64,000 bases of DNA from Nanobdellota archaeon (GCA_042572295.1 JBHPFA010000002.1:180-64179), one strand, 5' to 3'; positions 24,613 to 30,516 are shown, counted from the first letter of the stretch. A program made the numbers and translations. The notes: generated by a model from the letters alone, not told the origin.

Positions 24613-25551
24613 ATGAAAGTATTAGTAACTGGATCATCTGGATTCTTAGGAAGACACTTAACAAAAAAGCTTGAATCTGAAGGACAGGAAGTTGTTGCAT
24701 TAAACAGTAAAGAATGTGACTTAACTCAACAAGGTTCTTTGGAAAGAAAGCTAGAAGGATCCAAATTTGAACATATATACCACTTAGCAACCTATACACG
24801 TGCAGGGCCTTTTTGTGCGAAACATCCTGGAGAAATGTGGGTAAGGAATCAAAAGATAGACACAAATGCTTTAGATTTTTGGAGAGAAAAACAGCCTCAA
24901 GCAAAAATGACTGCAATAGGAAGTAGTTGTGCATATGACCCTTCCTTACCTTTTGTAGAAGAGAATTACCTTAAAGGAACTCCTCTGGGTAATTTTTTTA
25001 GTTATGGTAATTCTAAAAGAATGCTTCTAGTAGGTTTACAATCATTGAATAAAGAATTTGGTTTGAAATATAATTGTCCAATACCTACAACCCTATATGG
25101 TCCAGACTATCATTTAGATGGAAGACCACTTCATTTTGTTTATGATTTAATGAGAAAAATAATAAGAGCAAAAAAGAATCCAGATAAACCAGTGGTTTTA
25201 TGGGGAGATGGTAGCCAAGAAAGAGAAATAATTCATGTTAATGATTTTATTAATATTATGGAAGGTGTAGACTCTAAAGAAGAGAATCAATTGTACAATT
25301 TAGGATCTGGTAAGGGATACACTATAAAAGATTTTGCTCAAATGATTTGTGGAGAAGTAGGATATGATTTTTCTGAGGTCCAGTTTGATACAACAAAAAA
25401 TGTGGGTGCAAAATCTAAAGTCTTCCCACTTGATAAGATGAAAAAACTTTATGGCAAGGAATATCAAGAAAAAGATATGTCAGAAGGGATAAAAGAGTCT
25501 GTTTCTTGGATGCTTGAACATAAAGATCATTTTCTAAGCAATTATGATTAA
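24613..25551 (+). CDS. SDR-family NDP-sugar epimerase/reductase (GDP-L-fucose synthase-like)
   Basis: MKVLVTGSSGFLGRHL is the Rossmann motif. YGNSKRM is the YxxxK motif. TTLYGPDYH resembles Fcl/WcaG-type 3,5-epimerase-4-reductases. Confidence 0.7.
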   Translation: MKVLVTGSSGFLGRHLTKKLESEGQEVVALNSKECDLTQQGSLERKLEGSKFEHIYHLATYTRAGPFCAKHPGEMWVRNQKIDTNALDFWREKQPQAKMTAIGSSCAYDPSLPFVEENYLKGTPLGNFFSYGNSKRMLLVGLQSLNKEFGLKYNCPIPTTLYGPDYHLDGRPLHFVYDLMRKIIRAKKNPDKPVVLWGDGSQEREIIHVNDFINIMEGVDSKEENQLYNLGSGKGYTIKDFAQMICGEVGYDFSEVQFDTTKNVGAKSKVFPLDKMKKLYGKEYQEKDMSEGIKESVSWMLEHKDHFLSNYD

Positions 25552-25553
25552 AT

Positions 25554-27913: not shown

Positions 27914-28456
27914 ATGGCTCGTGCAATTTTTTTAGATAGAGATGGAGTAGTATGTGAAGACACTAATATGTTTTACCAAGGAACCCCCCTCTTAAAACCA
28001 GAAGATTTCAAATGGATTCCTGGATCAAAAGAAGCATTAAAATTGCTTTCTAACTTAGAATTTAAAGTTGCTTTAGTTACAAATCAATCCATAATAAATA
28101 AAGGCCTTCTTAGCGAAGAAGAATTCTTGAAAACTAATAATTCCCTTTATGGGGAAATGTCAAAAAATAATATAAATATAGAAAGAATTTATTATTGTAA
28201 GCATACTCCTAAAGAAAATTGTGAATGTAGGAAACCAAAAATAGGACTATTAATCCAGGCAGAAAAAGAATTGGGAGTTTCTCTTAAAGATTGTTATGTT
28301 ATTGGAGACAAAACTTCTGATATAAAAATGGGGGAAGATGCTGGTTGTAAAACGATTCTCGTTAAAACAGGATATGGAGGTAGAGATGACTCTTTCGAGG
28401 TAAATCCAGATTTTATAATGGATAACCTTTATGAAGCCATTAAGATATTAAAATGA
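27914..28456 (+). CDS. gmhB: D-glycero-D-manno-heptose 1,7-bisphosphate phosphatase (GmhB, HAD family)
   Basis: AIFLDRDGVV is HAD motif I. VTNQS, the Zn-site-like CKHTPKENCECRKPKIGLL and GDKTSDIKMGEDAGC complete the match. 180 aa is the typical GmhB size. Confidence 0.8.
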   Translation: MARAIFLDRDGVVCEDTNMFYQGTPLLKPEDFKWIPGSKEALKLLSNLEFKVALVTNQSIINKGLLSEEEFLKTNNSLYGEMSKNNINIERIYYCKHTPKENCECRKPKIGLLIQAEKELGVSLKDCYVIGDKTSDIKMGEDAGCKTILVKTGYGGRDDSFEVNPDFIMDNLYEAIKILK

Positions 28457-30516
28457 AAGCACTAATACTTGCTGGAGGTTTTGGAACAAGATTAAAAGAA
28501 ATTACTAAAGGTGTTCCTAAACCAATGGCACCTATTGCAGGCAAACCCTTTTTACACCACCAAATAAGACTACTTAGAGAACAAGGAATTACAGATATAG
28601 TCCTTGCAGTGCATTATATGAGTGATAAGATAAAAGCATATTTTGGAAATGGAAAGAGACATGGCGTAGATATTTCTTATGCTGAAGAAGAAATGCCTTT
28701 GGGAACAGGTGGAGCAATAAGAAATGCAAAAAGATATCTCGGAAATAATAAATTTGCCGTATTTAATGGAGATACTTATACTGGGATGAGTATTAAGAAC
28801 TTTAATAAATTTCATGAAGAAGTTGGTGAAGACTTTAGCATGGCAGTAACTTCTCATAATGAACCAGAACATCATGAGATTATTGAAATAAAGGACAATA
28901 TGGTAAAAACTCTTCATGAAAGAGGAAAATGTCCAAAAAATCTTGAATGCTTAATAAATAGTGGGGCCTATTTATTGGAACCAAACATATTTGATTATAT
29001 CGAAGAAGGAAGAAATATTTCTCTTGAAAAGGAAGTTTTTCCGAGAATTGTTGGTGAAGGTAAATTAGCTGCTTATAAACATACAGAGTATTTTATAGAT
29101 ATTGGTAGACCTGAAACTTATAAACAATTCAAAAAAGAAATGGTTAATGCCATGTTAATGAAAAAAACAGATTCTATAAGGAGTGCTATGAAAAGAATGG
29201 ACCGAAATGAAGAAGGTCTTGTATTTATTGTAGATGAAAACGAAAAACTAACAGGGATTGTAACCCCACATTTTATCAATAGTGCATTTATTAATGGGAA
29301 AACAAACCTCGAAGATAAACTTGAAAAAGTAATGCTTACTGAAGGCTTGGCTTTTGGAAATGAAAGTGATTCTCCTGAAAAAATAGCAGAAATAATGCTT
29401 CCCCGTACAAATAGGCTTCCGATACTTAATTCTCAAGGAAAAATTACAGACATAGTTTACAGACAAGAGGTATTGGGACCAAAAGAGTCTCCGACCTATA
29501 GGGCAATTTCTCCTTTAAGAATAAGTTTTTCAGGAGGGGGGACAGATAAAGAAGATTATTTCACAAGATTTGGTACAGGGGTTGTGATAAATGCGACAAT
29601 TGACAAATATTGTCATGCGACCACCAAACTAAGGCATGATAAATTGATAAGCATAAATCCTGGTGGCGAAGATGAAGAATTGCTAGACTTGAAAAAGGAA
29701 AAATTTGAATATAACGGCAGGTGGGATCTTGCAAAAGCAGTCGTTAAAGTGATGAATCCTGATTTTGGATTCGATCTTCATGCTTATAACGATGTTCCTC
29801 CAGGAAGAGGACTTGGTTCTTCTGGAAGTTTTGCAGTAATGCTTACTGAATTGATTGGACAAATGCGTGGAGAATACTTAACAAATGATCAAATAGCTAA
29901 ATTAGCAAGAAAAGCTGAAATAGAAGAATTAAAAATAAAAGGCGGATGGCAAGACCAATATGCTGCAAAAGTGGGGGGCTTTAATTTAATGGAATTTTCA
30001 CAAAATAAAATAACTCCTTCTTCACTTGCACTTTCTCCAGAAGTTGTAAGAGAGTTAGAAGAGAGCCTATTGCTCTGTTATATTGGAAAAACACATAATT
30101 CTGGAGAAATACATGCTGAACAAGAAAAGAATTTTCAAAAAGATGAAAAAAGAATACGTGGGGGTCTTGAAAAGTTAACTTCTATCGCAACGATTATAAG
30201 AGATTCTCTAGTTTCTAAAAATCCTTCAAAAGTTGGAGAGATTGGGAATTATTTACATGAAGCTTGGTTAATTAAAAAGGGGTTAAGTGGATCTATTTCT
30301 AATAATGAAATAGATGATTTGTATAACCTTGGATTAAAAAATGGGGCTACTGGGGGGAAACTTCTTGGAGCAGGAAACGGGGGATATCTTCTCTTCTTTT
30401 CACCTCCTGAGAGAAAAAGTTTGTTGGAAAAAGAACTATATAAAAATAAAAGAGAAATAATGAAGTTCCATTTTGAGCGACAACCTGCAGGAACACAGGT
30501 TTGGCCAGTCTATTAA
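28453..30516 (+). CDS. Tri-domain fusion: sugar-1-P nucleotidyltransferase (HddC-like) + CBS pair + GHMP sugar kinase (HddA-like)
   Basis: The N-terminal MKALILAGGFGTRLKEITKGVPKPMAPIAGKPFL is the NTP-transferase domain. The middle SIRSAMKRMDRNEEGLVFIVDENEKLTGIVT...RLPILNSQGKITDIV is a CBS pair. The C-terminal PLRISFSGGGTD and PPGRGLGSSGSFAVM are the GHMP kinase domain. It overlaps gmhB by 4 nt. Confidence 0.8.
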   Translation: MKALILAGGFGTRLKEITKGVPKPMAPIAGKPFLHHQIRLLREQGITDIVLAVHYMSDKIKAYFGNGKRHGVDISYAEEEMPLGTGGAIRNAKRYLGNNKFAVFNGDTYTGMSIKNFNKFHEEVGEDFSMAVTSHNEPEHHEIIEIKDNMVKTLHERGKCPKNLECLINSGAYLLEPNIFDYIEEGRNISLEKEVFPRIVGEGKLAAYKHTEYFIDIGRPETYKQFKKEMVNAMLMKKTDSIRSAMKRMDRNEEGLVFIVDENEKLTGIVTPHFINSAFINGKTNLEDKLEKVMLTEGLAFGNESDSPEKIAEIMLPRTNRLPILNSQGKITDIVYRQEVLGPKESPTYRAISPLRISFSGGGTDKEDYFTRFGTGVVINATIDKYCHATTKLRHDKLISINPGGEDEELLDLKKEKFEYNGRWDLAKAVVKVMNPDFGFDLHAYNDVPPGRGLGSSGSFAVMLTELIGQMRGEYLTNDQIAKLARKAEIEELKIKGGWQDQYAAKVGGFNLMEFSQNKITPSSLALSPEVVRELEESLLLCYIGKTHNSGEIHAEQEKNFQKDEKRIRGGLEKLTSIATIIRDSLVSKNPSKVGEIGNYLHEAWLIKKGLSGSISNNEIDDLYNLGLKNGATGGKLLGAGNGGYLLFFSPPERKSLLEKELYKNKREIMKFHFERQPAGTQVWPVY

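Follow-up and report, generated by a model that had tools for sequence, protein, structure and literature searches.

Can an archaeon of the DPANN group make and tailor an activated heptose by a route known from the capsule of Campylobacter? The question is raised by a gene cassette at positions 24613-30516 of a stretch of DNA from a Nanobdellota archaeon (GCA_042572295.1 JBHPFA010000002.1:180-64179). The window is this whole stretch of 64,000 nucleotides (nt); the open reading frames (ORFs) of the cassette were read from an ORF listing and then scanned with Pfam and NCBIfam profiles. A first-pass annotation of the same DNA had described six ORFs here and proposed that the organism makes an activated heptose for its surface glycan. 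All six are present where it placed them and on the strands it gave, and the scans bear out the family named for each. Specific-family E-values for the cassette proteins span 1e-30 to 1e-99, which excludes family assignment by chance. The proposal of an activated heptose gains support from the affinities of the kinase, the phosphatase, one short-chain dehydrogenase/reductase (SDR) and the cupin, and from the AglB-containing island in which the cassette lies. It is probable that the cassette encodes a Campylobacter-type pathway, in which GDP-heptose is synthesised and then modified by C4 oxidation, epimerisation and reduction.

What ties the cassette to heptoses? The last of the six ORFs (28453-30516, plus strand) encodes a fusion protein of 687 residues, with Pfam matches to NTP_transferase (residues 2-228), CBS (238-271) and the N- and C-terminal GHMP kinase domains (426-655). 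It divides into a nucleotidyltransferase (NTase) domain (residues 1-232, 28453-29148; PF00483, 118.5 bits), a CBS-pair linker (residues 233-348, 29149-29496; PF00571, 33.8 bits at residues 238-271) and an HddA-like GHMP kinase domain (residues 349-687, 29497-30516). Among NCBIfam models, the kinase domain matches HddA with 201 bits, covering 333 of the 338 positions of the profile, compared with 69 bits for mevalonate kinase, 49 for galactokinase and 47 for fucokinase. Its four top PDB matches are heptose-7-phosphate kinases (4n3o, 165 bits; WcbL 4usk/4usm, 157-159; 3k85, 153), while no fucokinase, mevalonate kinase or galactokinase structure exceeds 38 bits. The domain thus stands apart from the three clades that the first-pass annotation had named as grounds for abandoning its proposal. 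Both GHMP Pfam domains are found (PF00288, 60 bits; PF08544, 21.8 bits), and the phosphate-binding motif of the P-x-G-x-G-S-S-A type reads PPGRGLGSSGS. [quoted passage not shown]

The NTase domain carries LAGGFGTRL, the G-x-G-T-R signature of the RmlA/ManC fold. Against PDB, GDP-mannose pyrophosphorylases (119-120 bits) and the Yersinia HddC structures 6jq8/5xhw (117-118 bits) are effectively tied, and by these comparisons the domain best resembles GDP-forming enzymes, HddC among them. A second CBS-like repeat is visible both in the linker and in the family consensus, and the linker is kept in 120 of 120 DPANN homologues among the matches listed. The CBS pair is presumed to be a regulatory ligand-binding module.

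The ORF upstream of the fusion (27914-28456, plus strand) encodes a GmhB-like HAD-IIIA phosphatase. The three motifs quoted in the first-pass annotation are present in the translation, DRDGVV at residues 8-13, CECRKP at 103-108 and GDKTSD at 131-136, together with VTNQS and a zinc loop of the C-x-H...C-x-C type (CKH...CECRKP). The protein passes the cutoffs of the general HAD-IIIA models TIGR01662 (85.9 bits, cutoff 44.6) and TIGR01656 (113.7 bits, cutoff 84.15). The specific models favour GmhB (NF006506, 151 bits; TIGR00213, 117 bits) over HisB-N (70 bits), and four GmhB structures score 72-76 bits in PDB against 58 for HisB-N, which speaks against the histidinol phosphatase that had been considered as an alternative identity. 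TIGR00213, the model suggested earlier as a check, was therefore matched but not at its cutoff of 149.6 bits. The predicted activity is that of a heptose-1,7-bisphosphate 7-phosphatase.

Which modification would follow activation? The second SDR of the cassette (SDR2, 26974-27912, plus strand) matches PDB 6VO6/6VO8 with 336 bits (E 1.6e-99) over residues 1-303 of 312, and is 54.6% identical to 6VO6 over 302 residues; the next-best structure reaches only 74 bits. We take 6VO6 to be Cj1427, the GDP-heptose C4-dehydrogenase. The YGRTK segment of SDR2 aligns with YGIDK of 6VO6 at the SDR Tyr-x3-Lys site. The AlphaFold model built from the SDR2 sequence alone is too poor to use (pLDDT 31.5), and a fold search from it carries no meaning. 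From its sequence affinity, SDR2 is predicted to be a C4-dehydrogenase of the Cj1427 type rather than a 4,6-dehydratase.

This bears on the possibility that the product is a GDP-6-deoxyheptose, as in Campylobacter HS:23/36 or Yersinia, with SDR2 acting as the 4,6-dehydratase. The first-pass annotation had allowed for such a product when it spoke of an epimerised or deoxygenated heptose, and SDR2 does match dTDP-glucose 4,6-dehydratase models weakly (80.6 bits). Against it, 6VO6/6VO8 is the sole strong match, no dehydratase structure exceeds 64 bits, and the GMD model TIGR01472 scores 23 bits. NCBIfam scans of the window found no GDP-sugar 4,6-dehydratase equivalog, and the other SDR of the island (45008-46069) is GalE-like and not GMD-like. 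Since SDR2 is of the C4-dehydrogenase type and a 4,6-dehydratase equivalog is lacking, an epimerised and not a 6-deoxy heptose is predicted; the first half of the earlier alternative is supported but the second is not, and we regard a deoxygenated product as very unlikely.

In Campylobacter jejuni, Cj1427 oxidises C4 by means of tightly bound NAD(H), which is re-oxidised by alpha-ketoglutarate in a ping-pong mechanism; next, the epimerase Cj1430 acts on C3 and C5, and the reductase Cj1428 on C4 (PMC10680097). Both later activities have candidates in the cassette. The RmlC-fold cupin (26393-26962, plus strand) matches PF00908 with 138.6 bits, so that the RmlC-family assignment made at first sight holds. 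Its top eight PDB matches are C. jejuni GDP-4-keto-heptose epimerases at 114-120 bits, a modest lead over the best RmlC structure (96 bits), and it falls below the rmlC equivalog cutoff (115 of 156 bits). The catalytic His (RGIHGD), a Lys, and equivalents of Tyr134 and Asp173 are kept, with substitutions of Tyr132 by Phe and of Asn121 by Thr relative to the reference residues (residue list from PMC7949155). A GDP-4-keto-heptose C3 and/or C5 epimerase is predicted, and the PDB scores, 114-120 bits for all types, do not separate C3, C5 and C3/C5 enzymes.

The first SDR (SDR1, 24613-25551, plus strand) has GDP-fucose synthase (GFS) as its top NCBIfam model (Fcl NF047922, 143 bits). In PDB it scores 98 bits with E. 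coli GFS, 57 with DdahC and 49 with Cj1428. Aligned to E. coli GFS, it keeps equivalents of Ser107, Tyr136 and Lys140 as well as the Cys109/His179 dyad, in the segments GSSCAYDP, YGNSK and PLHF. At the position of that dyad MlghC has Tyr/Arg and DdahC has Thr/His (PMC7949155). SDR1 is predicted to be an NADPH-dependent C4 reductase of the 4-keto-heptose and, because it retains the GFS epimerisation dyad, it may epimerise as well as reduce. Taken together, the PDB matches of SDR2, the cupin and SDR1 agree with the earlier suggestion that the tailoring enzymes resemble the Campylobacter GDP-heptose set.

How would these proteins work together? Heptose-7-phosphate would be derived from sedoheptulose-7-phosphate by a GmhA encoded outside the window. 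[quoted passage not shown] SDR2 would then oxidise C4, its bound NADH probably being recycled by alpha-ketoglutarate as in Cj1427, the cupin would epimerise the 4-keto sugar at C3 and/or C5, and SDR1 would reduce C4 with NADPH to give a GDP-heptose epimer and not a 6-deoxyheptose. Glycosyltransferases of the island (GT9-GT2, GT2 and GT25) would place the heptose in a lipid-linked glycan, which AglB would transfer to surface proteins. Entry of the heptose into an N-linked glycan would be the most economical reading.

Several observations weigh against a heptose. A tblastn search with a DPANN GmhA query found no GmhA gene in the 64 kb, so the first pathway step is unaccounted for within the window; no SIS domain occurs in any of its scanned ORFs. 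Two close relatives, L086 and L089, likewise have no GmhA gene less than 10 kb from the fusion, and the loci L003, L006 and L089 have no GmhB beside the fusion. None of the cassette proteins reaches its NCBIfam equivalog cutoff among the HddA, HddC, GmhB, Fcl and RmlC models, which leaves strict family membership unproven: the kinase domain attains 201 of 600 bits for HddA (NF049969), the NTase domain 154 of 300 bits for HddC (NF049965), the phosphatase 151 of 178 bits for NF006506 and 117 of 149.6 for TIGR00213, and SDR1 143 of 500 bits for Fcl, with no partner GMD equivalog in the window. These equivalog models seem to be fitted to closely related orthologues from bacteria. For the NTase domain HddC is not even the top-scoring family, the mannose-1-phosphate guanylyltransferase model being slightly favoured (180 versus 154 bits). 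The database title of 6VO6 reads only 'putative sugar-nucleotide epimerase/dehydratase', and its identity with Cj1427 is presumed. Finally, the case is built from the order of the genes, the domains they encode, their family affinities and their conservation, and the enzymatic steps, nucleotide, product and acceptor are all predicted from these.

Could the cassette instead handle a hexose? Mannose-6-phosphate would be converted to mannose-1,6-bisphosphate and on to mannose-1-phosphate, bypassing phosphomannomutase, and then to GDP-mannose, which the SDR, cupin and SDR would turn into a GDP-hexose epimer. The lack of GmhA in the window and in the loci of its closest relatives fits such a scheme, as does the top NCBIfam model of the NTase domain, and the Campylobacter tailoring enzymes accept mannose substrates, although inefficiently except for MlghB (PMC7949155). 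By contrast, the kinase domain scores at least 130 bits better with heptose-7-phosphate kinases than with any other GHMP family, SDR2 shares its 54.6% identity with a structure taken to be a heptose C4-dehydrogenase, and the cupin ranks with heptose epimerases above the hexose enzyme RmlC. The GmhA argument also has another side, since other DPANN genomes have GmhA linked to this module. It is common in DPANN archaea; in locus L005 it is one gene away from the fusion, in two further cases it is seemingly on the same contig as a fusion homologue, and in L090 it is found inside a similar glycan island, beside SecDF. A hexose pathway is therefore considered unlikely.

Genes of another kind accompany the fusion elsewhere. 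Split transketolase/E1-type thiamine-diphosphate genes and a DegT aminotransferase gene adjoin it in three other DPANN lineages (L001, 12034-13795; L003, 14070-15943; L005, 12045-13241). These genes could supply sedoheptulose-7-phosphate or build branched or amino heptoses; none is present in the window.

How widely is the proposed heptose module distributed? At least 120 full-length NTase-CBS-GHMP proteins are 44-67% identical to the fusion of the window and, among the matches listed, all those with a taxon name belong to Woese-, Pace- or Nanoarchaeota or are labelled 'archaeon'. A Cj1427-type SDR (329-413 bits to SDR2) adjoins the fusion in every DPANN locus that has upstream sequence, except that in L010 the two lie 7 kb apart. 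The order Cj1427-like SDR, optional GmhB, fusion is seen in L001, L005, L006, L008, L009, L086 and L089, with the GmhB-like gene in between in L001, L005, L008, L009 and L086. Relatives at 60-63% identity retain the synteny. The remainder of the tailoring set is less constant. L086 (8925-9926) and L089 (7923-8924) have a 333-residue SDR, 31% identical to SDR1, in place of the RmlC-like cupin; the presence of an SDR instead of a cupin in the two closest relatives indicates that tailoring varies among near relatives, as it does among Campylobacter serotypes.

Bacteria arrange the same domains differently. Bacterial genomes keep hddC, hddA, gmhB and gmhA as separate genes, place a CBS-hddA gene after hddC, or have an NTase-GHMP gene without CBS. 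The CBS-HddA protein (~455 residues, encoded just after hddC) and the NTase-GHMP protein (~570 residues) consist of the same domains as the fusion, and are found in L013, L022 and L043-L045 and among the 50% representatives. The three-domain form (~680 residues) occurs in few 50%-identity clusters, four among the matches listed, including those that hold DPANN proteins. No Cj1427-like SDR was found beside the bacterial genes in the loci sampled. A rough neighbour-joining tree unites the DPANN GHMP domains in a single clade, with the bacterial CBS-HddA group as its sister; this position suggests that the fusion arose by the joining of two neighbouring genes.

Was the cassette then acquired from bacteria recently, or is it bacterial DNA binned by mistake, so that it plays no part in an archaeal glycan? 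Every closest characterised relative is bacterial, and the 54.6% identity between SDR2 and a Campylobacter protein suggests that horizontal transfer took place at some stage. The surrounding DNA tells otherwise: GC content is uniform at ~32% across the window, which also carries archaeal-type ribosomal protein genes, SecY, a 5S rRNA and four tRNAs. Uniform GC and the archaeal ribosomal and SecY genes, together with the identity of the fusion protein to an NCBI entry from a Nanoarchaeota archaeon, identify the source as a DPANN (Nanoarchaeota) archaeon and exclude a bacterial contaminant. The cassette sits between archaeal ribosomal-protein/SecY genes and SecDF, within the AglB island, and both the monophyly of the widespread DPANN fusion family and the maintained synteny argue against a recent arrival, which is highly improbable.

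From the cupin onwards, the genes for the predicted heptose pathway are probably transcribed together. The stop codon of gmhB and the start codon of the fusion share ATGA at 28453-28456, the overlap expected from the translational coupling proposed in the first-pass annotation, and SDR2 ends one base before gmhB begins. Six same-strand genes run from 26393 to 32003 with gaps of at most 37 nt, so the string is probably a single transcription unit. Upstream of it, the AT-rich divergent intergenic region 26283-26392, which on direct reading of the sequence contains TTTTTAAATATA and CATATAATAA stretches, is presumed to be the promoter region for the string from epimerase to methyltransferase. A sigma-70 promoter and terminator scan returned fewer sites than in shuffled sequence, the sigma-70 model not being applicable to archaea. 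The string continues beyond the fusion with a GT2 glycosyltransferase gene 37 nt further on (30554-31435, plus strand; PF00535, 128.9 bits) and ends with a SAM methyltransferase gene (31380-32003, plus strand; PF13489, 52.4 bits). By its position, the GT2 protein is a candidate user of the heptose product and, on the same basis, the methyltransferase might possibly O-methylate a sugar. As listed, these two ORFs share 56 nt; the start of the methyltransferase is a mechanically picked TTG, and the real start is probably further downstream. Directly 5' of SDR1 lies a GT25-family glycosyltransferase gene (23701-24564, plus strand; PF01755, 39.8 bits). It has counterparts near heptose-tailoring SDRs in L086 (11716-12582) and L089 (7054-7914). 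Members of the GT25 family decorate heptose in bacterial lipo-oligosaccharide cores.

What is the role of the one divergent gene, a TIM barrel (25554-26282, minus strand) of the AP_endonuc_2, or xylose-isomerase-like, family (PF01261, 41 bits)? It has 55 homologues, mostly metagenome proteins without a name, and the few that are taxon-named come from DPANN archaea. An AlphaFold2 model with a pLDDT of 95.7 is about equally similar in Foldseek to endonuclease IV of Mycobacterium tuberculosis (TM score 0.75) and to MJ1311 (0.78). Searched against PDB, the single sequence found no match, while the family profile reached 57 bits with MJ1311 and 36 with endonuclease IV. The invariant residues His47, His88, Glu117, Asp151, His154, His182, His194 and Glu220 include His, Glu and Asp positions that align with the HPG, IEN, DxxH and LET motifs of both proteins. 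Only L086, a close relative, has the gene at the same place; its neighbours in L087 and L088 are housekeeping genes. Because of these housekeeping neighbours in other DPANN archaea the gene is not counted as a pathway member, and the first-pass annotation, which had included it in the cassette, is not followed here in that respect: no conserved link to the heptose genes was found. The protein is probably an MJ1311/endonuclease-IV-like metalloprotein outside the heptose pathway. An isomerase that replaces GmhA was considered for it and rejected, given that profile and fold point to MJ1311 and endonuclease IV and that its neighbours elsewhere are housekeeping genes.

The cassette lies inside a glycosylation island of ~48 kb. 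The island opens with an AglB/STT3 oligosaccharyltransferase (5858-8515, plus strand; PF02516, 53.5 bits; TIGR04154, 81.7 bits, below cutoff) and a GT4-family initiating transferase, and it includes two flippase-like genes, numerous genes of the GT2 and GT4 families, one GT25 and one GT9-GT2 fusion. That fusion (16705-18630, minus strand) is a candidate heptosyltransferase. The GT9 domain noticed in the first-pass annotation is real (PF01075, 47.5 bits at residues 75-323, above the gathering score of 22) and is joined to a GT2 domain (PF00535, 75 bits at residues 353-506); it falls short of the equivalog cutoffs for lipopolysaccharide heptosyltransferases, with 56 of 170 bits for heptosyltransferase III (TIGR02201). 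The island is bordered by an S5-L15-SecY cluster (1-5550) on one side and by SecDF and S13-S4-RpoD-S9 (48398-61936) on the other. SecDF flanks matching islands in other DPANN archaea (L001, L005 and L090), as does S13-S4-S11-RpoD in L090, and the site looks like a conserved hotspot of glycan gene turnover.

Other pathways share the island. A complete gene set for 2-aminoethylphosphonate biosynthesis occupies 32023-40496. A phosphoenolpyruvate mutase-nucleotidyltransferase fusion (38775-40496, minus strand), a phosphonopyruvate decarboxylase (36520-37638, minus strand) and a 2-aminoethylphosphonate transaminase (37677-38789, plus strand) all score above their NCBIfam equivalog cutoffs, and are accompanied by a second NTase (35808-36518, minus strand) and a CDP-alcohol phosphatidyltransferase-like gene (32023-32802, minus strand). 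With this set, the DPANN archaeon may decorate a glycan or lipid with phosphonate. Its core genes recur in L089, and the CDP-alcohol transferase-like gene recurs in L086. Radical SAM genes are found at 13688-15097, 22297-23625, 32799-34274, 34276-35766, 19842-20885 and 51390-52265, among them four B12-binding paralogues, one radical SAM-SPASM protein and one small radical SAM protein. The product of 22297-23625, the only B12-binding paralogue scanned against NCBIfam, best matches HpnJ and PhpK P-methyltransferase models; the radical SAM proteins might carry out sugar C-methylation or phosphonate P-methylation. A second nucleotide-sugar tailoring set at 42161-46069 comprises an RmlD-like reductase (154 bits, below cutoff), a GT2, the GalE-like SDR and an NDP-hexose C-methyltransferase-like protein (PF08421, PF08484), which implies an additional branched or methylated deoxysugar. 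No Pfam match was obtained for the ORFs 15107-16708 (533 residues, inside the island), 60752-61936 (394 residues) and 62148-62948 (266 residues).

How does the proposed GDP-heptose pathway compare with known systems? The capsule locus of C. jejuni NCTC 11168 (HS:2) relies on GmhA (Cj1424), HddA (Cj1425), GmhB (Cj1152) and HddC (Cj1423), followed by the C4-dehydrogenase Cj1427, the C3/C5-epimerase Cj1430 and the C4-reductase Cj1428, to produce GDP-D-glycero-beta-L-gluco-heptose (PMC10680097). The archaeal cassette has the same enzyme families, and the genes it contains suit that order of reactions. Among the tailoring enzymes, the cupin groups with Cj1430, DdahB and MlghB, and SDR1 is a GFS homologue, as are Cj1428, DdahC and MlghC. 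The differences lie in the archaeal host with its AglB N-glycosylation context, in the fusion of HddC and HddA through a CBS pair, and in the position of gmhB, which is inside the archaeal operon but elsewhere in C. jejuni, with no GmhA nearby. Unlike the Campylobacter reductases, SDR1 keeps the Cys/His dyad of GFS and scores higher with the E. coli enzyme. A bacterial system for O-glycans of surface proteins shares the route through a GHMP kinase, HAD phosphatase and guanylyltransferase to GDP-alpha-heptose, but it consists of four separate genes, including gmhA, and lacks the C4-dehydrogenase, epimerase and reductase.

Archaeal heptoses themselves have precedent. The N-glycan of Thermoplasma acidophilum contains D-glycero-D-galacto-heptose (PMC11407970, PMC12448462), an epimerised heptose in an archaeal N-glycan and so the kind of product predicted for the window, although Thermoplasma belongs to another phylum and in these sources its heptose is known as a structure only. 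Moreover, archaeal enzymes for NDP-beta-heptose have been assayed, and the route likewise starts from sedoheptulose-7-phosphate and leads through a GmhB phosphatase to a nucleotide-heptose, while it differs in using a ribokinase-family kinase and a cytidylyltransferase-fold HENase and in yielding the beta anomer (PMC11461863). The window instead combines a GHMP kinase with an NTase of the RmlA/ManC fold, both of them hallmarks of the GDP-alpha route. The NDP-beta-heptose enzymes show that archaea are able to make activated heptoses (PMC11461863). The statement in the first-pass annotation that no characterised archaeal pathway has this set of genes can thus be kept for GDP-alpha-heptose, for which no literature description in archaea or DPANN was found, but not extended to archaeal heptose as such. 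The chemistry is known from bacteria and the archaeal host is new: each step has a characterised bacterial counterpart and no principle is changed.

A broader role for the module can be envisaged, although it is quite doubtful. The DPANN core, consisting of the Cj1427-like dehydrogenase, often GmhB, and the HddC-CBS-HddA fusion, would make GDP-4-keto-heptose as a branch point, and SDRs and cupins particular to each lineage would turn this compound into varied heptoses, an archaeal counterpart of capsule serotype variation in Campylobacter. Where GmhA is not linked, a non-orthologous isomerase would supply heptose-7-phosphate, or the archaeon would scavenge it from its host cell. DPANN archaea live in attachment to other cells and are not culturable on their own; if heptose-7-phosphate were indeed scavenged from the host, glycan synthesis in DPANN would be tied to their symbiotic lifestyle.

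To our knowledge, almost nothing is known of the surface glycans of DPANN archaea. The cassette predicts a testable outcome, namely a GDP-activated heptose that is oxidised and then re-reduced at C4 and enters an AglB-dependent N-glycan. Reconstitution of the enzymes would extend the unusual alpha-ketoglutarate-dependent chemistry of Cj1427 beyond Campylobacter and provide new enzymes for rare heptoses. Since the module occurs widely among Woese-, Pace- and Nanoarchaeota, a single biochemical reconstitution would annotate hundreds of genomes.

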